The notes: generated by a model not told the origin, from the letters alone. A DNA stretch of 27,410 nt from Archangium sp. (GCA_031367385.1 JANLPS010000390.1:1-27410), one strand, 5' to 3'. Shown: positions 5,268-26,462, counted from the first letter of the stretch. Program-made: numbers and translations.

Positions 5268-5303
5268 CGCGTGGGTGACCAAAGGTCGGCGAGATTCGCG
5301 CCC

Positions 5304-6098: not shown

Positions 6099-6099
6099 G

Positions 6100-8073
<1,974 letters not shown>

Positions 8074-8230
8074 GGGGTGTGAACCGTTACACACCGGGGC
8101 CTCCGCGACATGGGCGAGCGAAGGCGCAAGTGTGCGTCACGGTACGGGTTTTCGACCATGGTGCTGCAAAGTTCTTCGGGCCGCGCTTTTCGACCTGGCC
8201 TCCCGTGCGGTTGGTCTCGAGGAGGCACTC

Positions 8231-8887: not shown

Positions 8888-10081
8888 TCACCGCGGCTCG
8901 ACTGGCCGCTCGTAGATTCGGTACGTCTTGATCTTTCGAGCGCCGGTCGCCTGAATCGTTCGGTTGATCAGCGTGTCGTCTTCGAGCACCCAGCCCATTT
9001 CGCCCGACGCATACCCGAGCTTTTGCGCCGCTTGAAACGTCTCGAGCGCCAGCAACGCGTCGATGCCACGCCGGCGAAACCCGTCTTTGATGCCGAACAA
9101 CAACACGCGCAGGCGCTCGATTTTTCGCGCTGCCCACAGCAGCTTGGCCAACCCGAAGGGGAAGAGGTAGCCGCCAGCCGCCTTCAACGCGACGTTCGTA
9201 TCGGGCAGCGTGATGCCGAACGCGACGGCTTCACCGTCAACCTCGGCGATGAATGAGAGCTCAGGCCGCAGCAAAATGACCGGTCGCACGCGGTGCACCA
9301 GATCATCGAACTCGCTGTCGCTCATCGGCGCGAACCCGAAGCCCGGCCGCAACATGCCTTCGTAGATGCCCTTGATTCGTCGAATGTCGGCCTCGGGGTT
9401 GCTCGTGTCGAGCCGTCGCACCCGAACATGGCCCGTGGCTTTGACCCGCTCGGCCAGGCGCGTCACCTTGTCGGGCAGACCCTGGGCGGCGACGAGCTCC
9501 CAGCTCCAGAGGTCTTTCATTTTCACGAAGCCATTCGCCTCGACCAGGCGCGAATAGTACTTCGGGTTGTACGGCATCATCATCGACGGAGGGCGATCGA
9601 ACCCGTCGATCAGCAGCCCGCAGTCGTGGTGAAAGGCGAGGTTGATCGGCCCCACCAGCCGCTGCATGCCGGCCCGGCGCACCCACTCGGTGGCGCGCTC
9701 GAACAAGGCGGCGGCGACGCCCGGGTCGTTCTGCGACTCGAACATGCCGAAGAACCCATCGCGGCTGTCGTGAAAGCGGTTGTACCGGCTGTCGACCACC
9801 GCGGCGATGCGGCCCACGGTGCGGCCCCGTCGCTTGGCCAAGAAGAACGCGGCGCGCGCCTGGCCGAAAAACGGGTTCACCTTGGGGTCGATGAAGTCGC
9901 GGCGCTCGGCCACGATGGGCGGCACGAAGTTGGTGTCACCCGCATAGTGCTCGAGCTGAAAGCGCACGAACGCGTCGCGCCCGGCCGAGCCAGAGACCTC
10001 TTCAACAATCACGTCAGCCGCCGCCACCGCGTGCTGCGGAGGCGGGACCGGCGGTGTCACCAGCTGCGCCCGACGAGCCAC
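8888..10081 (-). CDS. YghO-like GNAT acyltransferase (bacterial ceramide synthase-like), paralog 2
   Basis: Motifs D.NFVPP, NPFF, VGRIAA, FFGMFE, GFD.PP.MMMPYNPKYY, WVLEDD, KTYR; clearly paralogous to the adjacent gene. Confidence 0.85.
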   Translation of the reverse strand: MARRAQLVTPPVPPPQHAVAAADVIVEEVSGSAGRDAFVRFQLEHYAGDTNFVPPIVAERRDFIDPKVNPFFGQARAAFFLAKRRGRTVGRIAAVVDSRYNRFHDSRDGFFGMFESQNDPGVAAALFERATEWVRRAGMQRLVGPINLAFHHDCGLLIDGFDRPPSMMMPYNPKYYSRLVEANGFVKMKDLWSWELVAAQGLPDKVTRLAERVKATGHVRVRRLDTSNPEADIRRIKGIYEGMLRPGFGFAPMSDSEFDDLVHRVRPVILLRPELSFIAEVDGEAVAFGITLPDTNVALKAAGGYLFPFGLAKLLWAARKIERLRVLLFGIKDGFRRRGIDALLALETFQAAQKLGYASGEMGWVLEDDTLINRTIQATGARKIKTYRIYERPVEPR

Positions 10082-10085
10082 GCTC

Positions 10086-11288
10086 TTAGTTCTTCACAGT
10101 CGCGGCGAGCGTCTTGCCGACGACGCGATAGGTCTTCGAGCGGGTCGCTCCGAACACTTCAATCACCCGGTTGACCATGTCGTTGTCTTCGAGCGTCCAC
10201 CCGATTTCGCCGCCGACCCAGCCGAGCTTCTTGGCGACGTTGTAGGTCTCGAGCACCAGCAGTGAGTCGAGGCCGCGCTTGCGAAACTCAGGGCGAATGC
10301 CGAGCGCGATCAATCGGCCGCGGTTGATCTTCTTGAGGCTGAGCAACATCTTCACCAGGCCAATCGGCATGCCGTAGGTGAAGAGCTTGCCGTTGGCTTT
10401 TTTGATCGACTGGTTCGCGTCGGGCACCGTGATCGAGAAGGCAACTGGCTTGCCCTCGACCTCGGCGAAGAGCACCAGCTCGGGCTTGAGCACCAGCTTG
10501 AGCTCCTTGCCCATGGTGTCGAACTCCTTGTCGGTCATCGGCACGAAGCCCCAGTTCTTCTCCCAGGCGGCGTTGTAGATCTCCTTGATGCGCCGAACCT
10601 CGTTGTCCCAGTCTTTGAGCACCGCCGGGCGCATCACGATGCCCTCGCGCTTTTGAATTTTGGCGGCGATGCGAGCGACCTTCTCGGGGGCCGGGTGATC
10701 GGTCTTCAGGTCCCACGCCCAGAGGTCTTTGATCTTGCCGTACCCGCAGGCCTCGGCGAGGTCCAAGTAGTACTTCGGGTTGTAGGGCATCATGATCGCC
10801 GGGTCTTGATCGAAGCCCTCTGCCAAGAAGGCCCACTCACCGTTGCTCGAGAAGCTCGCCGGGCCCCAGCAGTCATTGAGGCCGCGCGCCTTCACCCAGG
10901 CTTCGGCGGTTGAGAAGAGCGCCCGCGCCACCGCCACGTCATTGACGCACTCGAAGAAGCCGAACCAGCCGACCTTGGTGCCGTGAAACTCGTTGTAGCG
11001 GGGGTCTTCGACGGCGGCGATGCGACCGACGATCTTGCCTGCGCGCCGAGCCAGGTAGAGCTGCGCGCTGCCGAACTCGAACCAGGGGTTCTTCTTCGGG
11101 TCGAGCACCTGCTCCCTGTCCATCACGAGGGGGGGCACGAAGTTCGGGTGGTCGCCGTAGATCTCGTACTGAAACAGAATGAACGCCTTGCGATCGGCTG
11201 CGGTCACGACCGGCGTCACGAGCACGTCTCCGGACATCACGGGGGCTACCGATGCTGCGCCTGGGCTCGTCTGAGGGGTCGTCGACAT
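10086..11288 (-). CDS. YghO-like GNAT acyltransferase (bacterial ceramide synthase-like), paralog 1
   Basis: HPNFVPPL, KNPWF, VGRIAA, GWFGFFE, GFD..P.IMMPYNPKYY, YNAAWEKNWGFVPMT, RKRGLD, WTLEDN, KTYR. Confidence 0.88.
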   Translation of the reverse strand: MSTTPQTSPGAASVAPVMSGDVLVTPVVTAADRKAFILFQYEIYGDHPNFVPPLVMDREQVLDPKKNPWFEFGSAQLYLARRAGKIVGRIAAVEDPRYNEFHGTKVGWFGFFECVNDVAVARALFSTAEAWVKARGLNDCWGPASFSSNGEWAFLAEGFDQDPAIMMPYNPKYYLDLAEACGYGKIKDLWAWDLKTDHPAPEKVARIAAKIQKREGIVMRPAVLKDWDNEVRRIKEIYNAAWEKNWGFVPMTDKEFDTMGKELKLVLKPELVLFAEVEGKPVAFSITVPDANQSIKKANGKLFTYGMPIGLVKMLLSLKKINRGRLIALGIRPEFRKRGLDSLLVLETYNVAKKLGWVGGEIGWTLEDNDMVNRVIEVFGATRSKTYRVVGKTLAATVKN

Positions 11289-11329
11289 TGTGCGCGCTTG
11301 TAGGAGAATGGCGGTTCGGCAGTCAAATC

Positions 11330-11345
11330 GAGCAATATATTGCTC
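11330..11345. promoter_or_regulatory. Perfect 16-bp palindrome GAGCAATATATTGCTC, putative operator
   Basis: Read directly; AT-rich core in GC-rich DNA, about 42 bp upstream of the GNAT start. Confidence 0.7.
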
Positions 11346-11450
11346 ACACTAAACTTCCGTTAAATCGGGCGGTTTGGCCCATTCAACTCAGTGACAGACG
11401 TCGAAGTGAGGCCGCAACCGCCTGAAACCGAGTGCGAATTGGCGAATACT

Positions 11451-11466
11451 GAGCCATATATTGCTC
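11451..11466. promoter_or_regulatory. Second copy of the palindrome, GAGCCATATATTGCTC (1 mismatch)
   Basis: 15/16 identical to the 11330 copy, offset by 121 bp, in the same divergent intergenic region. Confidence 0.7.
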
Positions 11467-11680
11467 GTTCGGCTGCGTAAACGACCTCTCAGTGGCGACC
11501 CCATTCGGCGTCAATGCGGTTTTATCCAAATGATATTACTGCGTCATTTGACCTTGATCGGGTCCCTGCGCACCTGCGTTCCAACTGCGCAAAGACCACT
11601 GCGCAGAGGGTCTCCTGCTTGACCCCTCACAGTGACCTGTCTATTCCACGCCCACTTTCGAAGCTCACCGGAGTGACCCG

Positions 11681-13573
11681 ATGACTCACCTCTACGACTA
11701 CCCCAATTTGATCGCCGCCATCGATGGCTCGAAAGGCATGGTCGACAAGGGCTTCACGTTTCTCGACCGAGATCAAAAAGAGCTCTTCTTCTCGTGGGAC
11801 GGGCTGCGCGAAGAGGCGAAGCGCCGGGCTGCGCACTTTCGCAGCTACGGGCTGAAGAAGGGCGACCGCCTCGCGATGGTGCTGCCAGACGGCGAAGACT
11901 TCGTGCCGACGTTCTTGGCCGCGGTGTGGGCCGGGTTGGTACCGGTGCCACTCTACCCGCCGCTGTCGATGGGCAAGCTCGACTCGTACATCGACACGCT
12001 GATCACCATTCTGAACAAGGCCGGCCCGACCTACATCACCACCAACGCCAAGGTGCAGGCAGTGCTCTGGAGCGGCCTGTCGAAGGTCTCGAGCCTCAAG
12101 GGCGTGATCACCGCCGAAGAGCTGCGCGGCGCTGCCCCTGCTGGCGTGTCGCAAGAACCGGCCGAGGTCAGCGACACCGACCTGGCGTTCTTGCAGTTCA
12201 CCTCGGGCTCGACGTCGACTCCGAAGGGCGTGGCGGTCACCCACGGCAACCTGCGCGCGAATGCCTGGGCGATCATGCGTGACGGCCTGAAGACCGACCC
12301 AGCCGTCGACCACGGCGTGTCGTGGCTGCCGCTGTACCATGACATGGGGCTGATCGGCTTCGTCATCGCCCCGATGTTCCACAAGGTTCAGATCACCTTC
12401 ATCCCCACGATGGCGTTCGTGCGAAAGCCGACGCTGTGGCCCGAGACGATCTCGCGGGTGCGGGGCACCATCTCGTTTGCTCCGAACTTTGCCTACGCGT
12501 TGACCGCGAAGCGCTCGAAGCCCGAGCAACTCGAGAAGTGGGACCTGTCGTCGATGCGGGCCTTCGGTTGCGGCGCCGAGCCGATCAACCCCACCACGAT
12601 GCGCACCTTCGTCTCGCAGTTCACCAAGGCCAAGCTCAACCCGAGCTCGCTGCTGCCCTGCTACGGCATGGCCGAGGCGACCCTGGCGATCAGCTTCATC
12701 GCGCTCGACGAAGAGCTCTCGACCGACGTGGTCGACCAAGACGCGTACCAGACCGAAAAGCGCGCCGAGCCGGTACACCAGAGCAAGCTGAGCGCTGGCC
12801 GAGCCCAAGAATTCGTGTGCTGCGGCAAGGCCTTTCCCCAGCATGAGGTCGCGGCGTTCGATGACGCTGGCCTGCGGTTGACCGACCGTCGCATCGGCGA
12901 GCTCTGGGTGCGCGGCCCGTCGATCGCCACCGGGTACTACGAAGACGTCGAGCAGTCGCAGAAGACCTTCGGGCACGGCTGGCTCAAGACCGGAGACTTG
13001 GGCTACCTGGTCAACGGCAACATCTACATCACCGGCCGCAAGAAAGACCTGATCATCATCAACGGTCGCAACTACGACCCGCAGCGCATCGAGTGGATCT
13101 GCGACGACCTGCCCGAGGTTCGCAAGGGCAGCAGCGTGGCGTTCTCGCGGCCCGGCGCGGCGAGCGAAGAGCTGATCATCGTGCTCGAGTCGCGAACCGA
13201 GAACAAAGCCGCCCTGCAAGAGCTGGTGACCCAAAAGGTCAATGAACAGCTTCAATTGCAGGCGACCGAAGTGGTGATCGCGCCGCTGGGCAGCTTGCCC
13301 AAGACCTCGAGCGGCAAGCTGCAGCGCTCGAAGACCCGCCAGCAGTTCATCGACGGCACGGTCGGCAAAGAGGGCAACCGCTCGCTCGGCAGCAACGCTG
13401 AGAAGTTGGTGCTCGCACGGCACGTGGCGCTCTCGTTGCTGGGCCGTACCCAGCACCGCGCCAAGGCCGTGGTCGCGCACGCCAAAGAGATTCACTCGGT
13501 CACCGACGCGATGGGCAAGCTCAAGTTGGCGGGCAATTACTTCTCGAAGCGCGTCTCGACCCTCCTCGGCTGA
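11681..13573 (+). CDS. Fatty acyl-AMP ligase (FAAL)
   Basis: FLQFTSGSTSTPKG, SWLPLYHDMGLIG, PNFAY, YGMAEATL followed by a FAAL-type insertion, TGDLG, GRKKDLIIINGRN, LPKTSSGKLQR. Confidence 0.93.
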   Translation: MTHLYDYPNLIAAIDGSKGMVDKGFTFLDRDQKELFFSWDGLREEAKRRAAHFRSYGLKKGDRLAMVLPDGEDFVPTFLAAVWAGLVPVPLYPPLSMGKLDSYIDTLITILNKAGPTYITTNAKVQAVLWSGLSKVSSLKGVITAEELRGAAPAGVSQEPAEVSDTDLAFLQFTSGSTSTPKGVAVTHGNLRANAWAIMRDGLKTDPAVDHGVSWLPLYHDMGLIGFVIAPMFHKVQITFIPTMAFVRKPTLWPETISRVRGTISFAPNFAYALTAKRSKPEQLEKWDLSSMRAFGCGAEPINPTTMRTFVSQFTKAKLNPSSLLPCYGMAEATLAISFIALDEELSTDVVDQDAYQTEKRAEPVHQSKLSAGRAQEFVCCGKAFPQHEVAAFDDAGLRLTDRRIGELWVRGPSIATGYYEDVEQSQKTFGHGWLKTGDLGYLVNGNIYITGRKKDLIIINGRNYDPQRIEWICDDLPEVRKGSSVAFSRPGAASEELIIVLESRTENKAALQELVTQKVNEQLQLQATEVVIAPLGSLPKTSSGKLQRSKTRQQFIDGTVGKEGNRSLGSNAEKLVLARHVALSLLGRTQHRAKAVVAHAKEIHSVTDAMGKLKLAGNYFSKRVSTLLG

Positions 13574-13614
13574 AAAGCCTCTTCAAGCCTCACGCAACAA
13601 AAGGAAAACAGCAC

Positions 13615-13875
13615 ATGGCTCAGGTCAGCATCACGCAGTTGTTCGCGCAGGCCGCTCAAGAAGTGAACGGCAAGAAGCTCGCGAATCTCACCAAAGACAC
13701 GGTCATCTCGAAGCTCGGGCTCGACTCGGTCGCGGTGATGGAGCTGGTCAGCTTCTTCGAAGAGAAGCTCAACATTCGCATGCCTGATGATGACCTCGCG
13801 AAGGTGCAGACCCTGGGCGATTTGGGTGCGCTGGTGCAGCGGCTGTCGCCTCCGGGCACTGAAGTCAGTTTCTAA
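13615..13875 (+). CDS. Free-standing acyl carrier protein
   Basis: LGLDSVAVMEL phosphopantetheine site; 86 aa; AAGGA RBS upstream. Confidence 0.93.
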   Translation: MAQVSITQLFAQAAQEVNGKKLANLTKDTVISKLGLDSVAVMELVSFFEEKLNIRMPDDDLAKVQTLGDLGALVQRLSPPGTEVSF

Positions 13876-13894
13876 AGTTTGACGAGGTGACCTG

Positions 13895-16800
13895 ATGGCT
13901 GACGGCTCGAACGACGACAGCTCCCGCAGCACCGACATCGCGGTGATCGGCATGTCGTGCAAATTTCCGCACGCGGCTGATCTGCCCGCGATGTGGAAGC
14001 TGATCAGCACGGGAGAAGTCGCGTTCGAAGACATCGGCGATTCACGGTGGACGCACTCGTCATTCTTCGAGCCCACCGACGTTCGCGCGCCCGACAAGAC
14101 GTACGTTCGCAAGGGCGCCTTCATCGACGGCGTCGAGGAGTTCGCGGCGTTGCACTACGGGCTCGCTCCGCGCCGCGTGCAGGTGATGGACCCGCAGCAG
14201 CGCCTGGCGATTGAGATGACCCGGCAGGCGTTGGCCGACGCTGGGTACGACGTGAAGGGCTTCGACCGGGCCCGCACCGGCGTGTTCATCGGCGCGTCGG
14301 TCAGTGAGTACAAAGACGTGATGGGCGCTCGGCACCGCGCTCAGCAGATGGTCGACGGTGACTTCGGAGATCGGTTGTCGCCTGAAGAGGCGGCCTCGCT
14401 CAAGTCAGCGGTCGCCGACGTGGTGCCGATTCGCGCGTTCAGCATCGCTGGCTCGTTGCTGAACATGATCGCCTGCTCGGTCTCGCAGACCTTCGACTTG
14501 AACGGCCCCGCGATGCAGATCGACGCGGCGTGCAGCTCGGCATTGGTGGCGATTCACGAAGCGTCGATCAACCTGCGCGCGAGGCAGTGCAACGTGGCCA
14601 TCGCTGGCGGTGTGTACCTGAACCTGCACCCCGACAACCTGGTCGGGTTCTCACGCATCGGTGCCATCTCGATGAGCGGCGTGTGCCGGCCCTTCGACGA
14701 GCGCGCCGACGGGTTCGTGATGGGTGAGGGCATCGGCCTGGTGGTGCTCAAGCGCTATGAAGACGCGGTTCGCGACGGCGATCGAATTTACGCGGTGATG
14801 CGCGGGTCGGGCTGCAACAACGACGGTCGCGGCGAAGGGCCGATGACTCCGCGGCCCGAGGGGCAAATCGAGGCGATGCGCCGGGCGCACAGCGAGCTTC
14901 AGGTGCCCATCGAGACGATTGGGTACGTCGAGACGCATGGCACGGCCACCACCGTCGGCGACGCAACCGAGGTCGGAGCGCTCAAGAAATTCTTCGATGA
15001 GAAGGCCGGTCACGCGCTGACCCACCCCTTCGCGTACCTGGGCAGCATCAAGGCGAACATCGGCCACACCATGTCGGCCGCGGGCGTCGCCGGGTTCATC
15101 AAGACCTGCTTGATGTTGCATCACCGCGTGATTCCTCCGCAGCCAGGGTGTGAGAGCCTGAACCCCAAGCTCGATTTGACGCACTCGCCCTTCAAGATCA
15201 GCGATCAAGCGCGTGCGTGGGAGAAACCGAATGGTTTTCCCCGGCGGGCGGCGGTGTCGAGCTTCGGGTTTGGCGGCACCAATGCGCATGTAATCGTCGA
15301 AGAGACTCCGGTGCGTGATGAGGTGCCGGCTGATCGAGACGAGCTGTTTCTGGTCTCAGCGCCGACTCCGGAGCTGTTGATCACCTATGCGAACGCGCTG
15401 GCTGATCAGGTCGCCGCGCAGGCCTTGCGCCCGGCCGACGTGGCCTACACCTTGTCGACGCGAACCGTCTTCCCCGCGCGGGCGGCGTTCGTGGCCAAGG
15501 GCCGTGACGCGCTGATCAGCGCGCTTCGCTCGGTGAACGGGCAGCTGGTGGGCGAGGCCGCTCCGAAGGTGGCCTTCTTGTTTCCCGGTCAGGGGGCCCA
15601 GCGGGTCAATCTGCTCAAAGACCTGGTCGAGCGGTACCCGTCGATCAAAGCGCGCCTGGCGCAGTACGAGCTGGCGGCGGGCGTCTCGATGCTCCCCTCG
15701 TTGTACCCCGCTGCGGGTGCAGACCTGGCCGCGGCGCAGGCGCATCTGACACGCACCGAAGTGTGTCAGCCGGTGATGGCCGCGCTGGGTCTCGCGCTCA
15801 GTGAGTTCTTGAAAGAGCTGAACGTGGTGCCCGCGATGGTGCTGGGGCATTCGCTCGGTGAGTTCGCCGCGTCGGCCGCGGCCGAGATGATCACCCCCGA
15901 GGTCGCGGTGCGGCTGGTCGCGCAACGGGGCCAGTTGATGGCTGATCTGCCCCTCGAAGATGCGGGAGCGATGATCGCGGTGATGGCCGAGCGTTCGGCG
16001 GTCGAGCAGCTGCTGCAGTCAGGCCCCGAAGGCGTGTGGCTGGCGAATCACAACCACCCGAACCAGGTGGTGCTCAGCGGTACGACCCCGGGCATCGCGC
16101 GCGCCGAGATCAAGCTCAACGCCGCGGGCCTCAAGTCGACTCGCCTCGATGTGTCGCACGCCTTTCACTCACCGCTGCTCGACGGAGTCGACCCCGGCGT
16201 GACCGCGCTGGTCGAAGCGCTCGAGGTGGGCGAGCCTAAATGCCCAGTGATTTCATGCATCGAGGGCCGCGCGTACACTTCTGCCGCCGACGCGAAGGCC
16301 GTGTGGGCGAGTCATGCGACCGCTCCGGTGCAGTTCGTCGACGCGGTCACCGCGTGCGTCGCAGCGGGTGCGACTGACTTCGTTCAAGTGGGTGCCGGCT
16401 CGGCGTTGCTCTCGTTCGCTCGGCCGATGGCAAAAGACGCGAAGACCTGGGCGATCGCTCCCAACGAGGGCGGCGATGACGGGGCGCAGTTGTTGTCGAC
16501 GCTGGGCCAGCTGTGGGTCAAAGGCGTGCCGCTCAAGGCGCGCGCGTTGTTCGAGGGCGCCGAGGCGAGCTTGGCGATGGTGTCGCCGACTCCGCTCGAG
16601 ACGCAGAAGTATTGGGCGATCGAGCGCACCGCCCGCACGCCACATGTACCGTTGTCGCGCACGGTCGTTTCTTCTCCGGTTTTGCAGGCCAAGGGTGTCT
16701 CGATGGACAATCTGATCGCTTTGTTCGCGCAGCAGAACGCGCTGTTGCAGACCCAGGCTGATGTACTCAAGGCGCAGTCGGCGACGCTCGTGGCACTGGC

Positions 16801-19800
16801 CGGTGGGCAGCCGGCGCTCGCGCCCTCGCTGCCGGGCCCCGCGGTGACGCCGCCAATGCAGGTCACCGAGCCGGTCGCTGCTGCTCCGAAGCCTCCCAAC
16901 TTTTCGAACCTGGTCGCGGCGAAGGCGGTCGTGGCCCCCGTCGCTGCGAAGCCCCCGGTCGTCGAAGATCTGCGCCCGATGGTGCAAGAGAAGGTGCTGG
17001 GCTCCGTCTCGCGGATCAGCGCTTTCCCCGTGCAGACGTTGAAGCTCGACGCGACGCTGGTCGGTGACCTGGGCTTCGACTCGCTGATGCTGGTCGAGCT
17101 TGATCAAGACATCGGCAAGGGGTTTCCCTCGCTGGGTGGGCTGCCTCGCGAGCTCTTCAGCAAGACCACCACCGCCGCGACCGTCATCGAGCATGTCGTC
17201 AATGCCCTCACCAACACAGTGCCCGCGCCGATTGAAGCGGTGCCCACGGCGTCAGTGCCGCTCGAGCGGTATGTGCCGACGGTGTTGGCGGCTCCGTTGA
17301 CCAGCCTGACCGAGACGGTGACCCGTCTCGAAGCGCCGGTGTTGGTGACGCGTGACTCGCACGGCATCGCCGAAGCGCTGGTCGCCAAGCTGGCCGAGCA
17401 GGGTGTGTCGGCGAAGATTGGTGACCTGGGCACCGCGGGCCCGTTCGCGGGCGTGATGCACCTGGCTGATGTCTCGGCGAGCGGCGATTACCGGGCTCCG
17501 ACGCACAACGCGTTGGCGCTGGCGAAGAAGCTCACGGCTGAAAATGCCGAGGTCTTCATGACCGTCTCGGGCCTCGGTGGCCGGTTCGGCCTGACGGGCA
17601 CCAAGCGTGAACAGCTGGGCCAGGTCGGTGCGCTCGGCTTCACCCGGGCACTGGCGCAAGAGTGGCCTGACGCGGTCGTCAAGGCGGTCGATGTCGACCT
17701 CTCGCTGAACGCGGCTGATCTCGCCCAGGCGCTGGTCGATGAGCTGATCAGCGGAGACCGCACCAACGAGGTCGGGTTCTCGTCGGCGGGTCGCATGACG
17801 GTCGGGTTGGCTCCAGCGATGAAGACCACCGGTGAGGTGATCGGCGCTGATCAGGTCGTGTTGATCAGCGGCGGCGCCAAGGGCCTCGGGCTCAAGTTCG
17901 CCAAGGCCCTCGCGAAGAAATCGAAGTGCACCATCGCTTTGACCGGTCGTTCATCGGCCGAGGTCACCGGCGAGGTCGTCGCGGCTGGTGCGCGCGCGTG
18001 CAGCTTTCACGTGATGAACGTGCGCGACCCGAGCAGCGTGCAGCACGCGGTGAGCGAAATTCGCAAGCAGTACGGGCGCATCGACGTGGTGGTGCACGCG
18101 GCAGGGGTGCTGGCCGATGCGCTGGTCGCGAAGAAGGAGGTCTCGGCGCTCGATTCAGTGCTCGAGACCAAGGTCGGCGGCGCGCTGGCGCTGCTCGACG
18201 CGGTGCCCGAGGCGAAGCGCTTCATCGGCATCGGCTCATGGGCCGGCCGCTTCGGCAACGCCGCGCAGACCGATTACTCGGCCGCGAATGCGATGTTGGC
18301 TCGGGTGGGCCGGGCGACGATTGATTTTCCTCCGTTCGAAGACTCGGAGATGGTCAAGAAGATACCCGCGTTTCGCAAGGCCGAGCTGAGGGCCTCGGGC
18401 GTGACCTTCTTGACCGATGACGAGGGCATGGCGGCGTTCTTGACCGAGGTCGAGGGTGGCGTGGGTGAGGTGCTCGTCGGCCGTGGGTTGCCCGAGCGCG
18501 TCGTCAAACACACCGGCACGTTCCCCGTGTCGCGGCTCAACCACGTGTACCTGAATGATCACACCATGGCCGGTCAGCGCGTGCTGCCCTTCGCCTCGGC
18601 GCTCGATCACGTCACCGCCGCCGCCCTCGAAGCGAGTGGTGCGCAGGGCTTCACTGCCTTCACCGTGAGCGACTTCGCCTTGCAGCGCGCGGTGCTGGTG
18701 CCTGACACCACCTGGCTCGAGGTCTCGACGACCTCAGCGAAGCGAGCTGGCCGCGCTGGCGCCATCGAGGTCACCCTGAGCCAGGGGCAGGCCCTCTCGT
18801 ACAAGGGCGTCGTGACGTTGGGCGTTTCGAGCTCGGTGCCCGCAGTCAAAGCCATCGTCGCGGGCGGCGATTTGCCGATGTCGCTGAGCGATTTCTACAG
18901 CGGCTTCACCTTTCACGGGCCGCGCTTGCAGGGCATCACCCGCATCGACGCGGTCTCTGATGTCGGCGTGGTCGGGTGGGTCAAAGGCAGCCGCCCCTCG
19001 GAGTGGATCAAAGAGCCCCTGCGCTCGGAATGGACCGTCGACCCGTTGATCATCGATGCCTCGTTTCAGCTCGCTGGGTACTGGGCCTGGGTCAAGCAGC
19101 AGCGCGCCGGTTTCCCCCTCGCGCTGGGCACCTTCGTGCAGCTCAAGCCGTTCGGCATGGGCCCCGTGAAGTGCACGGTGAACTTCGAGACCTCGAGCGA
19201 CGATTTCTTCTCGGGCACCCTGGTTTGGCACGACCAGAAGGGCGACGTGTTGGCGTACATGACCGGCACCAAGGCCGAGTTCAAGAAGCGCGACCCGCAG
19301 TTCGCTCCGGCGAAGGTGCCCAACGAAGCGATTGCTCCAGCGACCGGCCCGGTGCCCGACGAAGCCACGTGGAACCCGGCGAAGTTCCCCGAGTATGAAG
19401 ACTTACAGGAGCGGCTGCAGATGGCCGAGGCCTTCGGTCTTCGCAACCCGTACTTCTCGGTGCACGAGGCGATTTGCGGTGACACCACCGTCGTCAACGG
19501 CAAGGAGATGATCAACTTCTCGTCGTACAATTACGTCGGCAACTCGGGCAACCCGGTGGTCTCGAAGGCGGCCCAAGACGCGATCACCAAGTACGGCACC
19601 TCGGTGTCGGCGAGCCGCGTGGCCTCGGGTGAGAAGCCGCTGACCCGTGAGCTCGAGGTCGCGTTGGCCGACTTCTTCGGCACCGAAGATTCAATCGTGA
19701 TGGTCTCGGGTCACGCCACCAACGTCAGCGTCATCGGCCACATCGTCGGCGCGGGTGACCTCATCGTTCACGACGCCCTGGCGCACGACTCGATCATCGG

Positions 19801-20593
19801 TGGCGCCAAGCTCAGCGGTGCCAAACGTCGCCCTTTTCCTCACAATGACTGGGAGGCGCTCGACCGCATGCTCACCAACCTCCGGCCGCATTACCGCCGA
19901 GTGTTGATCTGCATCGAAGGCACCTACTCGATGGACGGCGACATACCCGAGCTGCCGAGGTTCATCGAGGTGAAGAAGAAGCACCACGCGTTGCTGCTGG
20001 TCGATGAGGCACACTCGGCGGGTACGGTGGGCAAGACCGGCCGCGGCATCGGCGAGTACTACAAGGTCAATCGCGCTGACGTCGACCTGTGGGGCGGCAC
20101 GTTGTCGAAGTCGTTCGCGAGCTGCGGCGGGTACATCGCTGGCAGCAAGGCGCTGGTCGAGTACCTCAAGTATACGACCCCTGGGTTCGTCTACTCGGTG
20201 GGCATCTCGCCGCCCAATGCGGCCGCGGCGCTGGCCTCGACCCAAGAGATGATCGCTCACCCCGAGCGCGTCACCAAATGCCAAGAGAACGCGAAGTATT
20301 TTCTCGAGCTGTTGCACTCGCGGGGCATCAACACCGGCATGTCGAAAGACTCGGCGGTGGTGCCGGCGATCATCGGCAACTCGGTGCTCTGCCTGCAGCT
20401 GAGCGACGCGCTCAAGACCCGCGGCATCAACGTGCAGCCGATTCTGTACCCGGCGGTCGAAGAAGATCAGGCGCGGTTGCGCTTCTTTCTCTCGTCGCTG
20501 CACAAGAAAGAACAGCTGCAGAAGACCGCTGATGTTCTCAAAGAAGAGCTCGAGCGGTTGACCCGAGAGATGAACGCTGAAGCCGTTGCTTGA
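13895..20593 (+). CDS. Type I PKS KS-AT-ACP-KR-DH fused to a PLP alpha-oxoamine synthase (SPT/AONS family)
   Basis: KS: DAACSS, HGTAT, NIGH. AT: GQGAQ, GHSLG, HAFH (malonyl-type). ACP: LGFDSL. KR: GGAKGLG, HAAGVLAD, DYSAAN. DH: DHTMAGQRVLP and DASFQ. AOS: NFSSYNY, AHDS, YSMDGD, DEAHS, GTLSKS (PLP Lys). GAGGT RBS upstream. Confidence 0.95.
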   Translation: MADGSNDDSSRSTDIAVIGMSCKFPHAADLPAMWKLISTGEVAFEDIGDSRWTHSSFFEPTDVRAPDKTYVRKGAFIDGVEEFAALHYGLAPRRVQVMDPQQRLAIEMTRQALADAGYDVKGFDRARTGVFIGASVSEYKDVMGARHRAQQMVDGDFGDRLSPEEAASLKSAVADVVPIRAFSIAGSLLNMIACSVSQTFDLNGPAMQIDAACSSALVAIHEASINLRARQCNVAIAGGVYLNLHPDNLVGFSRIGAISMSGVCRPFDERADGFVMGEGIGLVVLKRYEDAVRDGDRIYAVMRGSGCNNDGRGEGPMTPRPEGQIEAMRRAHSELQVPIETIGYVETHGTATTVGDATEVGALKKFFDEKAGHALTHPFAYLGSIKANIGHTMSAAGVAGFIKTCLMLHHRVIPPQPGCESLNPKLDLTHSPFKISDQARAWEKPNGFPRRAAVSSFGFGGTNAHVIVEETPVRDEVPADRDELFLVSAPTPELLITYANALADQVAAQALRPADVAYTLSTRTVFPARAAFVAKGRDALISALRSVNGQLVGEAAPKVAFLFPGQGAQRVNLLKDLVERYPSIKARLAQYELAAGVSMLPSLYPAAGADLAAAQAHLTRTEVCQPVMAALGLALSEFLKELNVVPAMVLGHSLGEFAASAAAEMITPEVAVRLVAQRGQLMADLPLEDAGAMIAVMAERSAVEQLLQSGPEGVWLANHNHPNQVVLSGTTPGIARAEIKLNAAGLKSTRLDVSHAFHSPLLDGVDPGVTALVEALEVGEPKCPVISCIEGRAYTSAADAKAVWASHATAPVQFVDAVTACVAAGATDFVQVGAGSALLSFARPMAKDAKTWAIAPNEGGDDGAQLLSTLGQLWVKGVPLKARALFEGAEASLAMVSPTPLETQKYWAIERTARTPHVPLSRTVVSSPVLQAKGVSMDNLIALFAQQNALLQTQADVLKAQSATLVALAGGQPALAPSLPGPAVTPPMQVTEPVAAAPKPPNFSNLVAAKAVVAPVAAKPPVVEDLRPMVQEKVLGSVSRISAFPVQTLKLDATLVGDLGFDSLMLVELDQDIGKGFPSLGGLPRELFSKTTTAATVIEHVVNALTNTVPAPIEAVPTASVPLERYVPTVLAAPLTSLTETVTRLEAPVLVTRDSHGIAEALVAKLAEQGVSAKIGDLGTAGPFAGVMHLADVSASGDYRAPTHNALALAKKLTAENAEVFMTVSGLGGRFGLTGTKREQLGQVGALGFTRALAQEWPDAVVKAVDVDLSLNAADLAQALVDELISGDRTNEVGFSSAGRMTVGLAPAMKTTGEVIGADQVVLISGGAKGLGLKFAKALAKKSKCTIALTGRSSAEVTGEVVAAGARACSFHVMNVRDPSSVQHAVSEIRKQYGRIDVVVHAAGVLADALVAKKEVSALDSVLETKVGGALALLDAVPEAKRFIGIGSWAGRFGNAAQTDYSAANAMLARVGRATIDFPPFEDSEMVKKIPAFRKAELRASGVTFLTDDEGMAAFLTEVEGGVGEVLVGRGLPERVVKHTGTFPVSRLNHVYLNDHTMAGQRVLPFASALDHVTAAALEASGAQGFTAFTVSDFALQRAVLVPDTTWLEVSTTSAKRAGRAGAIEVTLSQGQALSYKGVVTLGVSSSVPAVKAIVAGGDLPMSLSDFYSGFTFHGPRLQGITRIDAVSDVGVVGWVKGSRPSEWIKEPLRSEWTVDPLIIDASFQLAGYWAWVKQQRAGFPLALGTFVQLKPFGMGPVKCTVNFETSSDDFFSGTLVWHDQKGDVLAYMTGTKAEFKKRDPQFAPAKVPNEAIAPATGPVPDEATWNPAKFPEYEDLQERLQMAEAFGLRNPYFSVHEAICGDTTVVNGKEMINFSSYNYVGNSGNPVVSKAAQDAITKYGTSVSASRVASGEKPLTRELEVALADFFGTEDSIVMVSGHATNVSVIGHIVGAGDLIVHDALAHDSIIGGAKLSGAKRRPFPHNDWEALDRMLTNLRPHYRRVLICIEGTYSMDGDIPELPRFIEVKKKHHALLLVDEAHSAGTVGKTGRGIGEYYKVNRADVDLWGGTLSKSFASCGGYIAGSKALVEYLKYTTPGFVYSVGISPPNAAAALASTQEMIAHPERVTKCQENAKYFLELLHSRGINTGMSKDSAVVPAIIGNSVLCLQLSDALKTRGINVQPILYPAVEEDQARLRFFLSSLHKKEQLQKTADVLKEELERLTREMNAEAVA

Positions 20594-20622
20594 TCAACGA
20601 AGTGCGTGAAGGAAGCTTTCAA

Positions 20623-21501
20623 ATGACCTCGACTCAAGAAGAAGTTGAAATCGGTTACGACATCAGCAACGAGTTTTTTCGCCTCTGGCTCGACGAGCGC
20701 ATGCACTACACCAGCGCGGTGTACGACGCCGAGCACACCACGCTCGAGCAGGCGCAGCGCAACAAGAGCAAGTGGCTGGCTGATTTCGCCGAGGTGACTC
20801 CCGAATCGCTGGTGCTCGACATCGGCTGCGGCTGGGGCGCCAACCTTGAATACCTGGCCCTCGAGCGAAAAGTGCAACGCGCGCATGGCATTACGTTGTC
20901 GCGTTCACAGGCCGATGAAATTACGGCTCGCAAGCTGCCCGGCGTGACGATGTGGGTCGAAGACTACAAAGACTTCGCTCCGAAAGAAAAATACGACGCG
21001 CTGATCAGCATCGAGATGATCGACCACCTGGTCTCGCCCGCGCAGCAGCAGCAGGGCCTCGCGATTCAGATCTACCGCGACTACTTCAACAAGACCGCCA
21101 AGTGGGTCAAGCCCGGTGCCTGCTTCGGGTTTCAGGCCATCTTGCGCGACCGCGTGCCCCGCACCCGCGCCGATTTGGAAGATTTGAAGTTCACCGCAGA
21201 CGTCATCTTCCCCGGTGGGCTCAACCCGCGGCTCGAAGAGCTCGTCGCCGCGTGTGGCCAGTCATGGGAGATCATTCAGCTCAACACCCGCCGGGTCGAT
21301 TACGGCAAGACCACCGCTGAGTGGCTGCGCCGCTACCGCATGAACAAAGACAAGATCATGGCCTCGGGCTGGGGCGATCGCAGAATGAGCAATGGCGAGA
21401 CCGTGTGGGTCAACTACGAGCGGTACCTGGCGACCTGCGTGAAGGCCTTCGCCAACCACTGGTCGAGTGACGTGCAGATGAAGCTGCGCCTCAAAGACTG
21501 A
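20623..21501 (+). CDS. SAM-dependent methyltransferase, cyclopropane-fatty-acid/mycolic-acid synthase family
   Basis: YDISNEFFRLWLD..M.Y, LEQAQ..K, LDIGCGWG, GITLSRSQ, IFPGG, DYGKT. Start at ATG 20623 (GAAGGA RBS); the alternative TTG 20590 overlaps the PKS stop. Confidence 0.9.
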   Translation: MTSTQEEVEIGYDISNEFFRLWLDERMHYTSAVYDAEHTTLEQAQRNKSKWLADFAEVTPESLVLDIGCGWGANLEYLALERKVQRAHGITLSRSQADEITARKLPGVTMWVEDYKDFAPKEKYDALISIEMIDHLVSPAQQQQGLAIQIYRDYFNKTAKWVKPGACFGFQAILRDRVPRTRADLEDLKFTADVIFPGGLNPRLEELVAACGQSWEIIQLNTRRVDYGKTTAEWLRRYRMNKDKIMASGWGDRRMSNGETVWVNYERYLATCVKAFANHWSSDVQMKLRLKD

Positions 21502-21681: not shown

Positions 21682-22488
21682 TCAAGCCAGCTCAACCCAC
21701 GCTTCATTGCGTCGCAAGAAGGGCAGGGTCGACGGAGCGTCGTAGCCTGCAAACCCCGTCAGCCCGGCGGGCTTGAGCCCCTGGGCCTTGAGGTTCGCGA
21801 GCAGGCGCAGCTGCATCTGCTCGTTGTCTTCACCGTTGAAGGTGCCCTTGTAGCGCAGCGCGGCCACTCGGCGGGCCGGCAGGGCGCGCAGCCGAACCTC
21901 GTGGTTGAGCGGCGAGGGCAGGCTGGCCAGTGAATACCCGTCTGGCATCACGAAGCGCACCAGGTAGCTGCCGTCTTGCATCATCGCGAGGTCGGTCTTT
22001 CGCTCGCGAATCTGGGTGACGGGAGCGGTCATCTCGATGCGCTCTCCGGTCGCGTTGTGGCCGAAGATGTACTCGGCGAGCACCCGAAAGCCGATGTCGA
22101 GCGCCTCGCGAAAGGAGTCGGCGCGCACGGTGGTCTCGGCCACGGTTTGGGGTGAGTAGTGCCGAATTTCGACCTCGTCGGGCCCAACGGAGGTCTCGAC
22201 ATCGTAGGTGGCTTGCTCAGAAAACAAGCGGGCCATTTGCCAGCGAAACAGGCCCAGCCCGAGCGCCGCGCCGAGACCGATGATGGCCGGAGGCTTGGTG
22301 AGCGCGTCGAGCAGGCTGCGAGCCGGGCTGACGCGGCGGCGCTGCAGCAGGTCGGTTTGGGTGGCGACGTAGAGGCCCGCGCCAGCGGCGGCGAGCACGG
22401 CTCCGGCTGAGATGAGGCCAATCGACTTCTTCGAGGCCACGACTGGAGGCGGGGGTGCGGCTTTGCGGGTGCGGGGCTTGCTCGGCAT
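21682..22488 (-). CDS. SOUL heme-binding family protein with N-terminal hydrophobic extension
   Basis: EIRHY, FRVLAEYIFG.N...IEMTAPV, FVMP, YDAP.TLPFLRRNE; AAGGAG RBS before ATG 22488. Confidence 0.88.
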   Translation of the reverse strand: MPSKPRTRKAAPPPPVVASKKSIGLISAGAVLAAAGAGLYVATQTDLLQRRRVSPARSLLDALTKPPAIIGLGAALGLGLFRWQMARLFSEQATYDVETSVGPDEVEIRHYSPQTVAETTVRADSFREALDIGFRVLAEYIFGHNATGERIEMTAPVTQIRERKTDLAMMQDGSYLVRFVMPDGYSLASLPSPLNHEVRLRALPARRVAALRYKGTFNGEDNEQMQLRLLANLKAQGLKPAGLTGFAGYDAPSTLPFLRRNEAWVELA

Positions 22489-22671
22489 GGGGGCTCCTTC
22501 AAAGTGACTTCGACGACCGGTTTGCAATTCGAAGACCCGAGACTTTCACAGCTGCGCCTGAAGGGGTCGGTTCTCAAATTCGCCACATTCGACCCGGTCA
22601 GTGCGGCGATCACGCTGCGATGTGGGGAATTTCGCCTTGCCTCAGGGCCGCGATGTCGCCAGACAGCCACG

Positions 22672-23592
22672 ATGGCCTGGCTGAACTACCACCACCTCTT
22701 GTACTTCTGGACGGTCGCTCGCGCGGGCACCATCGCCGCCGCCAGCAAGGAGCTGCACCTCTCGCAGCCCACCATCAGCAGCCAGCTCAAGACCCTCGAA
22801 GACGCGCTGGGCGAGCGGTTGTTTCAGAAGCACGGTCGACGCCTGGCGCTGACCGACGTGGGCCGAACGACCTACCGGTATGCCGATGACATTTTTCGCC
22901 TCGGGCGCGAGCTGCAAGAGGCCGTGTCGCGGGGGCCGGTGGGCGAACAGGTGCGCTTCGCGGTGGGCGTGACCGACGTGATACCCAAGTTGGTGGCCGA
23001 GCGGTTGTTGCGGCCTGCCTTTGCTGCCTTGCCGCAGCTGCAGCTCGAATGCGTCGAGGGGCCGTTGCCGCAGCTGTTGGGCCAGCTGGCCCTGCATGAG
23101 CTCGACGTGGTGCTCTCTGATCAGCCCTCGCCCAATGACATCAAGGTGCGCGCGTTCAACCACGCGCTCGGCGAGAGCGGCACGTCGTTCTTCGCCCGGG
23201 GCCCTCAGGCGGCGGCGCTGCGCAAGGGGTTCCCCGAGTCGCTGACTGGCACGCCGATGTTGGTCGCGCGCACCGGTACCGACACCCGCATGCACTTGGA
23301 TCAGTGGTTCGACGACAAGAAGGTGAAGCCGAAGATCGTCGGCGAATTCGACGACTCGGCGCTGATGAACGTGTTCGGGCAGCGGGGGCTGGGCGCGTTC
23401 ACCGCTCCCACCGCCATCGAGGCCGAGGTGGTCAGCCAGTTCGACGTGCAGGTGGTGGGGCGCACCGATGAGCTGATGCAGCGCTTCTTCGCCATCTCGG
23501 TCGAGCGAAGGCTGCGGCACCCCGCGGTAGTGGCCATCGCCGAGTCGGCTCGCACCGAGGTGTTCACCGAGAGCGCTACTCCTTCTTCTTGA
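22672..23592 (+). CDS. nhaR: LysR-family transcriptional activator, NhaR-like
   Basis: MAWLNYHHLLYFWTVAR.G...A...LHLSQPTISSQLK.LE, EFDDSALM..FG and ISVERRLRHPAV are typical of the NhaR subfamily. Confidence 0.85.
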   Translation: MAWLNYHHLLYFWTVARAGTIAAASKELHLSQPTISSQLKTLEDALGERLFQKHGRRLALTDVGRTTYRYADDIFRLGRELQEAVSRGPVGEQVRFAVGVTDVIPKLVAERLLRPAFAALPQLQLECVEGPLPQLLGQLALHELDVVLSDQPSPNDIKVRAFNHALGESGTSFFARGPQAAALRKGFPESLTGTPMLVARTGTDTRMHLDQWFDDKKVKPKIVGEFDDSALMNVFGQRGLGAFTAPTAIEAEVVSQFDVQVVGRTDELMQRFFAISVERRLRHPAVVAIAESARTEVFTESATPSS

Positions 23593-23818
23593 GCGTCGCG
23601 GAGTTCTCTTTGATGAACGCCCGAATGTCGTCGGCCAGGTCGAGCAGCTTGACCCACTGCTCCTGGTAGAGCGTGACGGGAAAGCGGCCGAGGCCGTACA
23701 CCGAGAGCCCGCCCTTCTCGCTGACCTTCATCGAGATGGCGCGCGAGCTGCGGCTCTTCAGCGCTTCGTTCTCGGCCTTGAGGCGTTCGAGCTCAGCCTT
23801 CATTTCTGTTTCATTCAT
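23576..23818 (-). CDS. Small conserved hypothetical protein (N-terminal coiled coil)
   Basis: ELERLKAENEALK coiled coil followed by KVSEKGGLSVYGLGRFPVTLYQEQW, a motif I recognise from a widespread uncharacterised family. Confidence 0.8.
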   Translation of the reverse strand: MNETEMKAELERLKAENEALKSRSSRAISMKVSEKGGLSVYGLGRFPVTLYQEQWVKLLDLADDIRAFIKENSATLKKKE

Positions 23819-23933
23819 GGGCCGCACGCTCGGCTGCGGCGATGACGACGTCAAGGCCGGTCGTGGCTCGACGCGCTCATCAAGAAATGGGGGTGCTGAA
23901 CAGAATGTCAGTGGTCTATGCTAGAACGTTCGC

Positions 23934-24260
23934 ATGACACGAAATCTGAATCGGTTGGCGGAGTGGAGCGTGGTGGATGGTCTCGTGACCGAAGTGTACC
24001 GGGAGACGTCGCTGCTCTCACCGGCAGAGCCGGTGCGAGACTTGATGCGCGAAGCGGCGTTGTCGCTGGCGACGATGAGCTCGCTCGAGGTGGCGCACGC
24101 CAAGCTGGCGACGCTGGGGTACCTGTTTCGGCTCGCCAACGAGTCGGGGCTGGTGCCCCTCGAGGTGGTCTCTCGAATGCTCGAGCGCATTCTCGAATCG
24201 GCCCGGGCGTTGCGGCGCTTCACCCCGAGTGGCTCCCAGCCGGTGCCCGACCCCGGTTGA
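23934..24260 (+). CDS. Hypothetical protein, possibly a divergent four-helix-bundle (23S rRNA IVP/Avd-like) protein
   Basis: All-helical pattern L..W.....LV.EVY..T...P..E....MR.AA.S....L..A...L..L.Y...LA...G; fills the gap between neighbours without overlap. Confidence 0.5.
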   Translation: MTRNLNRLAEWSVVDGLVTEVYRETSLLSPAEPVRDLMREAALSLATMSSLEVAHAKLATLGYLFRLANESGLVPLEVVSRMLERILESARALRRFTPSGSQPVPDPG

Positions 24261-24269
24261 CGCGTAGAA

Positions 24270-25769: not shown

Positions 25770-25904
25770 AGGGCGGCGCCATAGCACGCTGCGACGGGTG
25801 TGGCCCTGCTCTGTGCCCGATATGTCTGGCCTGCTGGGGCGTTGGCCGACGGCGAAAAGAGGCCCGCGCAATCGACGAAAAGCCCTGGTACATCAGCTTG
25901 CGTC

Positions 25905-26450
25905 ATGCGAGCTCATCTTCTTGCGTCGTTCATGTTGTCGGCAGGCTGCATCGTCTCAGCGCCCACCAGCGAGGGCACGGTGGCCACCAGCCGCCCGTTG
26001 CCACCCGCGCCGCCGGTCGAGTTCAAGGTGGGTGCGAACTTCGGCGACAAGGCCGAGCTGACCAGCGTGATTCTCTCACCCAGCCGCGGAGTGCCTGGCG
26101 ATTCGGTGAAGGTATTGGCCAACTACAAAGTGAACGCCGCTTTCGATACCGACTACACGGTCTTCGTTCACGTCGAAGACGTCGATGGCAAGGTCGACCG
26201 AATCAACGTCGACCACGTGCCTGGCCGCGGCTCACTGCCGACTTCGAAGTGGAAGGTGGGCGAGATGGTGCGCGACGAGTTCGACATCCCGATTCCTCCC
26301 GGGTACCCGGTGCGGGGGCTGAACATCATGCTCGGCCTGTGGGACCCGCGAACCGACGCGCGCTGCAAGATCGTCAACGCCGAGCAGGTTCGCACCGACG
26401 GGAGAGACCGGCTCTTCGTCGCCAACTTTCCCGTGGTGCAGGGCCCGTAA
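25905..26450 (+). CDS. Hypothetical lipoprotein (beta-rich, Ig-like)
   Basis: MRAHLLASFMLSAGC lipobox; DYTVFVH...DH.P.....PTSKW..GE.VRD motif. Confidence 0.75.
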   Translation: MRAHLLASFMLSAGCIVSAPTSEGTVATSRPLPPAPPVEFKVGANFGDKAELTSVILSPSRGVPGDSVKVLANYKVNAAFDTDYTVFVHVEDVDGKVDRINVDHVPGRGSLPTSKWKVGEMVRDEFDIPIPPGYPVRGLNIMLGLWDPRTDARCKIVNAEQVRTDGRDRLFVANFPVVQGP

Positions 26451-26462
26451 GTCGCGCTTTGG

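Follow-up and report, generated by a model that had tools for sequence, protein, structure and literature searches.

We analysed a stretch of 27,410 nucleotides from Archangium sp. (GCA_031367385.1 JANLPS010000390.1:1-27410; "the window" means this whole stretch) and focused on the gene at positions 13895..20593 of the plus strand, which encodes a 2232-aa protein that joins a polyketide synthase (PKS) to an alpha-oxoamine synthase (AOS), in the order KS-AT-ACP-KR-DH-AOS according to ORF translation, Pfam, motifs and alignment. Judged from sequence comparisons, the cluster around this PKS-AOS is very probably a ceramide long-chain-base synthase that replaces the stand-alone serine palmitoyltransferase (Spt). 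This role is likely because no intact Spt was found in the Myxococcaceae carriers, the ancestral site of spt is occupied by a lysine-less remnant, the AOS is apparently of the SgaB type and the cluster is of the ceramide type. The prospects that the product carries a 4E double bond are about even, and the complete explanation, in which the Spt-replacing role is joined to a mechanism with a 4E product, stands at the same middling level of confidence.

Relatives without the PKS-AOS have a stand-alone Spt gene followed by a YghO-like gene. We searched 190 Myxococcaceae genomes with a DH-AOS query, which matched 64; 8 were dropped (AOS-only match, 48-55%), leaving 56 PKS-AOS carriers. The Spt query gave 127 matches in the same set, corresponding to 124 out of 134 non-carriers and 3 out of 56 carriers, and 10 genomes had neither gene. 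The three matches inside carriers had lost both the pyridoxal phosphate (PLP) lysine and the Asp of the DxxH motif; coexistence of both systems in those genomes was considered and rejected, the Spts there being lysine-less. Thus, an intact stand-alone Spt was not found in any of the 56 carriers.

The genome of the window retains an spt remnant on another contig (C46:19385-20686, minus strand; locus L216:8386-9687), a 433-aa open frame with 37% identity to myxobacterial Spt that lacks the PLP lysine and the stacking histidine. It adjoins genes for MlaC, an outer-membrane efflux protein (OEP) and an aldolase and, because these neighbours flank spt-bCerS in the Spt-bearing relatives, we place it at the ancestral spt locus. 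The bCerS genes of this genome are found beside the PKS-AOS and not at the ancestral locus, and its other AOS genes are BioF, Kbl, one weak unassigned AOS and the remnant. When the remnant of genome G128 was used as query in five Spt-bearing relatives, the best match was Spt itself. When a profile was built from six remnants, 54 of the 56 carriers yielded an spt orthologue (E <= 2e-67); one more is represented by a contig-end fragment and one has none. We fetched 53 remnants, 51 of which span the lysine column: none (0/51) has a Lys within 4 columns, and the comparison Spt and Spt-like rows all keep it (9/9). The displaced spt thus appears to be a catalytically dead remnant. Its dN/dS (median 0.20, range 0.06-0.35, 107 pairs) points to purifying selection, though the pairs are non-independent and the value is biased downward because they were picked at >=70% identity. 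Two genomes, G141 and G142 (L130, L131, L138, L139), showed a mildly decayed spt followed by two bCerS genes, with the genes for a fatty acyl-AMP ligase (FAAL), an acyl carrier protein (ACP), a desaturase and the PKS-AOS elsewhere and the methyltransferase on another contig, an apparent intermediate state of the replacement. Finally, a 95% complete member of the family (G018; L181, L187) had a bCerS match and only Kbl and BioF-like genes, and neither Spt nor PKS-AOS was found in it.

The survey was extended to 355 Myxococcota genomes, in which related genomes are non-independent observations. Here 101 genomes matched, and removal of the same 8 and of two AOS-only fusions (about 960-990 aa) left 91 PKS-AOS carriers. 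The Spt query matched 175 genomes. Five of these are carriers, three with the lysine-less copies and two, from family f4, with an intact Spt-like gene. Of the 91 carriers, 86 were among the 257 genomes in which bCerS was detected. In families f8 (16/16) and f17 (16/17) PKS-AOS and bCerS were present, and Spt was not detected (0/16 and 0/17, respectively). Even genomes of only 2.2 and 2.7 Mb have retained the FAAL-ACP-PKS-AOS run and two bCerS genes, in keeping with a core membrane pathway. The original prediction had assigned the window gene to sphingolipid synthesis, and this assignment is supported by the bCerS-family neighbours, the AasR/AcpR-like layout, the distribution complementary to Spt and the lysine-less remnant. 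Separately, family f11 (L178-L180) had bCerS in 13 of 17 genomes, and the three examined contained a divergent clade of Spt-like AOS that the myxobacterial Spt query missed at 1e-95. Two genomes of 1.8 Mb (G351, L133; G341) belong to a family with no bCerS match; a FAAL-to-AOS fusion of roughly 960 aa, with an AOS of the same clade as that of the window, was seen in L133.

The PKS-AOS protein matched Pfam families for the ketosynthase (KS, aa 14-418), acyltransferase (AT, 561-856), ketoreductase (KR, 1322-1468), dehydratase (DH, 1546-1792) and Aminotran_1_2 (1871-2214), all encoded on the plus strand. The KS (13934..15148) was recognised by ketoacyl-synt N and C and carries C213, H348 and H391, and the AT (15575..16462) has the GHSLG (S653) and HAFH motifs of the malonyl type, in agreement with Pfam and the alignment. 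The single cis-ACP (16964..17224; motif GFDS, Ser1063) was missed by the whole-protein Pfam scan, and its excised segment scored 25.1 bits, above the PP-binding cut-off of 20.8. Next come the KR (17255..18480, with its catalytic part at about 17852-18298; Pfam and alignment), with GGAKGLG, K1426, S1448, Y1461 and the B-type Asp1408, and a PKS-type DH (18530..19270), with PKS_DH_N and PS-DH above cut-off, H1556 (HxxxGxxxxP) and D1721. The C-terminal PLP-dependent AOS domain (19370..20593; Pfam, motifs and tree) has H1964, D2037, H2040 and K2072 and falls in the clade taken to be of the SgaB type. The ~200 aa upstream of the catalytic KR gave no Pfam match and may form a structural subdomain of the KR.

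The alignment comprised 80 rows, the window protein plus 79 homologues drawn from named GTDB records, with gaps in truncated rows. The catalytic residues were unchanged in every covering row (KS Cys/His/His, AT Ser, ACP Asp-Ser, KR Lys/Ser/Tyr/Asn, AOS His/Asp/His/Lys), with one AT His->Arg replacement as the sole exception among the aligned catalytic residues. In particular, KR D1408 and Y1461 and the DH His were each invariant in 77/77 rows, the DH Asp and AOS Lys in 80/80, and the ACP Asp-Ser in 74/74; all 74 rows that show the ACP motif have one ACP per protein. The whole-protein Pfam scan reported no enoyl reductase (ER) or thioesterase (TE) family, and no ER family was present in the Pfam lists of the 120 best homologues in either of two protein searches. 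PKS-type and PfaD-type ER queries found nothing in 99 PKS-AOS loci, and no interdomain linker of the aligned proteins is long enough for an ER. The domain order, catalytic motifs, single ACP and lack of ER and TE that had been read from the sequence were therefore all confirmed by Pfam, motifs and the 80-row alignment, and the earlier domain coordinates proved correct to a few tens of bases.

The PKS-AOS is the third gene of a tightly spaced run, FAAL-ACP-PKS-AOS-CMAS methyltransferase, from which two bCerS genes diverge. The FAAL (11681..13573, +, 630 aa) is an AasR-like loader with 35% identity to E. coli AasR (E 6e-115); its best NCBIfam match was the PRK09192 fatty acyl-AMP ligase, at 512 bits under a cut-off of 600. 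The stand-alone AcpR-like ACP (13615..13875, +, 86 aa) matched PP-binding (E 1e-10) and is 35% identical to E. coli AcpR over 37 aa. Downstream of the PKS-AOS lies a CMAS-family S-adenosylmethionine (SAM)-dependent olefin methyltransferase (20623..21501, ATG 20623, +), which at 292 aa has the length of the mycolic-acid methyltransferases (Pfam CMAS E 2e-49). The two YghO/bCerS-family N-acyltransferases, copy 1 (10086..11288, -, 400 aa) and copy 2 (8888..10081, -, 397 aa), are 35% (E 3e-72) and 30% (E 2e-62) identical to E. coli BL21 YghO, respectively. They are the sole YghO matches in the genome, and copy 1 is 58% identical to a GNAT adjoining a stand-alone Spt in another Myxococcaceae genome. 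The original prediction was right about the PKS-AOS itself and overlooked that the genes on either side, from 8888 to 21501, belong to the system. Among 80 loci, FAAL recurred in 56, the methyltransferase in 53, the ACP in 44, YghO-like genes in 27, a CerR-like epimerase in 22 and a ferritin-like acyl-ACP desaturase in 12; these counts are lower bounds because many loci end early, the flank often stopping short of the YghO genes. Of another 19 loci, taken from other families, 18 have the FAAL and 16 the ACP. No CerR-type reductase was found in the window (the best match in the genome, on contig C84, is 28% identical to E. coli ECD_02852), and an epimerase homologous to it was linked to the PKS-AOS in 22 of the 80 loci.

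This arrangement equals that of the E. coli BL21 ceramide cluster, in which yghO is divergent from FAAL-epimerase-ACP-spt, but with a PKS fused ahead of the AOS. The AasR-AcpR-Spt-CerR-CerS pathway of Caulobacter and E. coli BL21 comprises the same gene set, with the same divergent layout in BL21 and identities of 35% (FAAL), 35% (ACP) and 30-35% (YghO) (PMC9386255, PMC11087976); yghO is listed there as a homologue of the Caulobacter CC_1154 ceramide N-acyltransferase, in a legend (PMC9386255, Fig. 9). The window differs from this pathway in that a PKS-AOS whose AOS belongs to a different clade appears to stand in for Spt, bCerS is present in two copies, a methyltransferase is added and there is no linked epimerase.

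The AOS domain groups with probable SgaB-type enzymes and not with canonical Spt. Its identity to the Spts of E. coli and myxobacteria is 33-36%, that to an AOS encoded next to a KS-AT-DH-ER-KR-ACP PKS on a plasmid from Pseudomonas is 53%, and that to the corresponding Sinorhizobium gene is 43.5%. In a quick IQ-TREE search of 102 rows, from which 26 duplicate, partial or very weak rows (remnants among them) were left out, the window AOS and the Pseudomonas and Sinorhizobium AOS formed one clade (SH-aLRT 100; L111, L112), apart from the Spt clade (98). The Pseudomonas plasmid AOS (L111) served as a stand-in for PfSgaB and was chosen by its sgaABC-like layout and the PKS-to-SDR locus-tag spacing. 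AOS of the same clade were also observed in other clusters of Spt-bearing Myxococcaceae (G055, L134; G086, G090 and G111, L135-L137), the L134 cluster having an FAAL and a distant CMAS methyltransferase too. In addition, a Streptomyces plasmid protein of ~1600 aa (L281:11359-16182), adjoining an MMPL transporter, is 41% identical to the window protein in its KS-AT region and 54.5% in its AOS.

PfSgaAB of Pseudomonas fluorescens MYb115 is a PKS and AOS pair that makes saturated C24-C28 sphinganines, and PfSgaB is described as an almost exclusively serine-selective SPT (PMC12134224). The window system shares with PfSgaAB(C) a type I PKS plus an AOS that makes, or here would make, long-chain bases, the AOS being in the same clade as, and 53% identical to, the Pseudomonas one of the same cluster layout. 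However, the examined SgaA-type PKSs are KS-AT-DH-ER-KR-ACP proteins with a separate AOS and saturated products, whereas the window has the ACP before KR-DH, no ER, a fused AOS, FAAL/ACP loading, bCerS and a methyltransferase, and Spt is probably replaced. No Myxococcota genus was named in the genus table of PfSgaAB-homologous clusters (PMC12134224; supplementary material partly covered).

The KS-AT-ACP-KR-DH order is common to the window PKS, the polyunsaturated fatty acid (PUFA) synthase PfaA and the enediyne synthase PKSE. Unlike PfaA, the window PKS has one ACP and no tandem ACPs, ends in an AOS, scores 600 bits with TIGR02813 (under the cut-off of 1010) and has no PfaB/C/D or TE among its recurrent neighbours; the real Pfa system of its genome lies elsewhere. 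PKSEs end in a C-terminal PPTase domain and have a thioesterase partner and cassette neighbours, whereas the window protein ends in the AOS and no TE was among the recurrent neighbour families. Release of an acyl chain from a PKS by an AOS is a likeness to the Planktothrix fusion (L113; KS-AT-DH-ER-KR-ACP-AOS), which differs in having its own ER, and to the fungal Fum1/Fum8, SphB/SphA and MyrB/MyrA pairs. A characterised cyanobacterial PKS-AOS fusion exists. The other PKS-AOS systems examined, as far as their sources were covered, either contain an ER or lack KR-DH, and the KS-AT-CP-KR-DH-AOS layout was not in the non-redundant table of PMC3870968, a source covered in part. By its sequence, the PKS-AOS is thus not a canonical Spt, PfaA, PKSE or SgaA.

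We propose that the PKS-AOS works like an acyl-ACP-fed serine palmitoyltransferase with a built-in elongation module that lacks an ER. By homology to AasR/AcpR, the FAAL would load a fatty acid onto the stand-alone ACP, and the CMAS methyltransferase would methylate a mid-chain C=C of the acyl chain, with a methyl branch as a likelier outcome than a cyclopropane. The KS would then take the chain and the AT supply malonyl and, assuming one cycle, the observed B-type KR and DH would leave a 2E-enoyl chain on the cis-ACP, without ER reduction. By the chemistry of its family, the fused AOS would release the chain by decarboxylative condensation with L-serine, the amino acid suggested by the clade and the context; because acyl C1 becomes C3 of the base in SPT chemistry, the 2E bond would become the 4E bond. 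Finally, the two YghO/bCerS enzymes would N-acylate the base, and a CerR-type reductase, an unlinked candidate in this genome, would reduce the ketone.

A B-type KR followed by an intact DH yields an E-2-enoyl thioester, and the claim of a direct route from a 2E-enoyl chain to a 4E sphingenine fits the sequence in this respect (B-type KR, intact DH, no linked ER). It is rather unlikely that the same Spt-replacing enzyme works as an elongase whose cycles are completed by a trans ER, of the PfaD type or from housekeeping FAS II, giving a base saturated at C4-C5 as with PfSgaAB. PKSs of the PfaA order do depend on a separate ER, TIGR02813 PfaA was the second-best model of the PKS-AOS and the Pfa system of the genome has an ER domain. 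Nevertheless, no ER was found in the 99 loci, SgaA-type PKSs have an ER of their own that was never seen in the listed PKS-AOS homologues, and, when 80 of the 91 carriers were searched for a PfaD-type ER, 48 gave none, among them the single-contig genomes G006 and G010. The PUFA-synthase-like system of the genome (G000:C403, L218; C141, L217) has a PfaD/NMO-type ER domain fused N-terminally to a PfaA-like KS-AT-ACPn protein, and long ORFs similar to this ER-fused protein were observed in about 15 relatives.

The substrate of the AOS bears on a further alternative, in which a different sphingolipid-like base is made, either because the AOS takes the beta-hydroxy intermediate (5-hydroxy base) or because its amino acid is not serine but, for instance, alanine (giving a 1-deoxy base or a different aminolipid). 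The choice of amino acid is unreadable from AOS motifs, and the domain lies outside the canonical Spt clade. Moreover, fungal SphA condenses a 3-hydroxy-4-enoyl-CoA (PMC10936153), so that sphingofungin synthesis, considered as a precedent for a 2-enoyl substrate, was not borne out as one; this was the sole unusual acyl substrate found, and no precedent for an AOS accepting a 2-enoyl thioester was found in the literature examined, as far as the sources were covered. We consider such a base quite unlikely, given that the DH His and Asp are invariant across families, which is hard to reconcile with a bypassed DH, and that the nearest characterised member of the clade is almost exclusively serine-selective. 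From its clade and gene context, the AOS of the window is expected to use L-serine.

The end product is probably not plain sphingosine, because the CMAS-family methyltransferase accompanies the PKS: an orthologue was present in 68 of 80 carriers and in none of 80 control genomes at the same cut-off (controls gave 4 weak matches, 33-36%). This distribution also argues that an olefin in the pathway is methylated, and thus the final base is probably methylated too. An Atlas search confirmed the CMAS assignment. The enzyme belongs to the same family, of about 290 aa, as the mycolic-acid methyltransferases MmaA1, UmaA and CmaA2 and CFA synthase, which were its best PDB matches, but the similarity is low (best E 5e-23) and it has Gln where those have His. 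The SAM motif D[IV]GCGWG was found in 56 of 57 homologue rows. The motif SIEMIDH aligns with SFEAFDA of MmaA1 and not with the Gly-containing motifs of CmaA2, UmaA and CFA; the MmaA1-like motif occurred in 48 of 57 rows, and in 7 of 57 Cys replaces Glu. The residue at this position may decide between branch and ring; a confirming passage was looked for in the literature and not found. The motif suggests a methyl branch rather than a cyclopropane. Trans-olefins that carry methyl branches are the products described for MmaA1 (PMC12845086). A mid-chain bond is the likelier target, because an electron-poor 2-enoyl bond would be a poor substrate for carbocation chemistry.

That mid-chain bond could come from a linked desaturase or from host membrane desaturases. 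An acyl-ACP desaturase orthologue was present in 18 of 80 carriers, usually adjoining the ACP gene, and absent from the genome of the window, which has 10 membrane desaturases. Because of these enzymes, the description of the route as desaturase-free may hold for the 4E bond and does not extend to the whole route. A search of the genome for Lipid_DES (PF08557) was empty and, lacking a positive control, uninformative. Alternatively, the PKS could run through several cycles with no reduction and so make a base with two or three conjugated double bonds, 4E,6E(-8E), with the methyltransferase acting on the DH-made polyene and not on a pre-existing bond. PKSE and other ER-less enzymes of the KS-AT-ACP-KR-DH type do make polyenes iteratively, and the methyltransferase tracks the PKS far more closely than does the linked desaturase. 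This outcome seems unlikely to us, since the presence of a dedicated FAAL and ACP implies that a long acyl starter is made beforehand (18 of the 19 cross-family loci have the FAAL), no TE or enediyne cassette was among the recurrent neighbours and the membrane desaturases of the host could provide the olefin. Searches of the PDB and plasmid sets with KS-AT and KR-DH returned no close characterised relative to settle between single-turn and iterative action.

Several observations weigh against an Spt-replacing synthase with a 4E product. The genomes are related, so that the replacement in Myxococcaceae may amount to one or two events, and the named loci are all titled as metagenome-assembled genomes (MAGs; 79/79), nearly all of Myxococcota or Deltaproteobacteria, the host of the window being of the Myxococcaceae type. 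The AOS passed none of the NCBIfam Spt models (280, 254 and 215 bits against cut-offs of 640, 500 and 670, respectively), and its top score was with the BioF model; these models are incomplete, since the myxobacterial Spt query itself (513 bits) is under the cut-off of the CFB Spt model. In Spt-bearing genomes, AOS domains from other clusters belong to the AOS clade too, and the clade alone thus does not fix the substrate. Because the Spt query misses divergent Spts, as in f11, Spt absence is weaker evidence in distant families than in Myxococcaceae; for this reason we made an inventory of AOS homologues at a lax cut-off in 15 carriers, which returned PKS-AOS, Kbl, BioF-like genes, one HemA, remnants and weak unassigned genes, none of which fell in the Spt clade. 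With regard to the double bond, a PfaD-type ER is present in 32 of 80 carriers, that of the window included, and housekeeping enoyl reductases may serve as well; the characterised SgaAB makes saturated sphinganines; and the methyltransferase does not prove that the DH olefin survives, because a host-made cis double bond may be its target.

Finally, five carriers (families f4, f28 and f33) had no bCerS match, and two of the five have an intact Spt-like gene. These carriers, the fact that bCerS adjacency is found mainly in Myxococcaceae and the location of the nearest annotated AOS genes in capsule-related clusters would favour an aminoketone pathway for a secondary metabolite or a capsule anchor, with no relation to membrane ceramides and with incidental bCerS linkage. 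We regard this as highly improbable, as it leaves unexplained why the Spt lysine is gone from each of the carriers checked although bCerS persists, and why the system is retained in genomes of 2-3 Mb. The five genomes (G319, G320, G321, G365 and G375; L124-L127) may use a different N-acyltransferase. A gene for a 2-oxoacid-dehydrogenase-type acyltransferase was observed just downstream in L124 and in 4 of the 80 named loci.

A PKS plus AOS route to sphingolipids is already known from PfSgaAB, and an ER-less fusion replacing Spt was not found in the literature searched. Titles and abstract openings, with most subscription journals outside the coverage, yielded nothing on this architecture, on myxobacterial Spt replacement or on a dehydratase-derived 4E base. 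Surveys call bacterial sphingolipid producers from stand-alone Spt (PMC11334938), and would probably miss or misread the PKS-AOS lineages, which make up about a quarter of the 355 Myxococcota genomes. If the replacement reading is true, PKS-derived sphingolipids would no longer be limited to a case of secondary metabolism (PfSgaAB) and would reach into core membrane synthesis. The dead spt left at its former locus and the bCerS genes next to the new enzyme would then be a rare record of such a replacement in a genome. Direct condensation of a 2E-enoyl chain would constitute a new, oxygen-independent route to the sphingosine 4E bond, useful for making sphingoid bases. More speculatively, and with a rather low probability, several Myxococcota lineages may build eukaryote-like, unsaturated and methyl-branched sphingoid bases, of the kind of fungal 9-methyl-4E,8E-sphingadienine, on an ACP line before serine condensation, with the 4E bond from polyketide dehydration and not from an O2-dependent Delta4-desaturase, and may retain the lysine-less Spt, under purifying selection, as a pseudoenzyme with a new non-catalytic role, in which it might partner the active AOS in the manner of LCB1 or hold the ceramide enzymes together as a scaffold. 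Eukaryotic SPT has an inactive subunit, to which the retained pseudo-Spt would be a testable bacterial parallel.

Among other observations, genome G228 (L120) encodes a PKS-AOS of 1827 aa without an AT match, yet linked to ACP, FAAL, epimerase and bCerS. A second FAAL of the genome of the window (G000:C379:8469-13278), 35% identical to E. coli AasR, lies upstream of bioB/bioF in a run with an apparent type III PKS, a small membrane methyltransferase and an oxidoreductase, labels that come from reading the translations and not from a scan. Promoter and terminator scans were at chance level (2 vs 1.1 and 13 vs 10.0, respectively). The flanks of the window (182-8094 and 21685-27410) are unrelated to the cluster and encode an FHA/sigma-54 regulator, a pirin, a hydrolase, a PlsC-like acyltransferase, a Ser/Thr kinase with two kinase domains, a SOUL protein, a LysR regulator, FtsY and a thiolase-like gene, none of which recurs widely beside the cluster.

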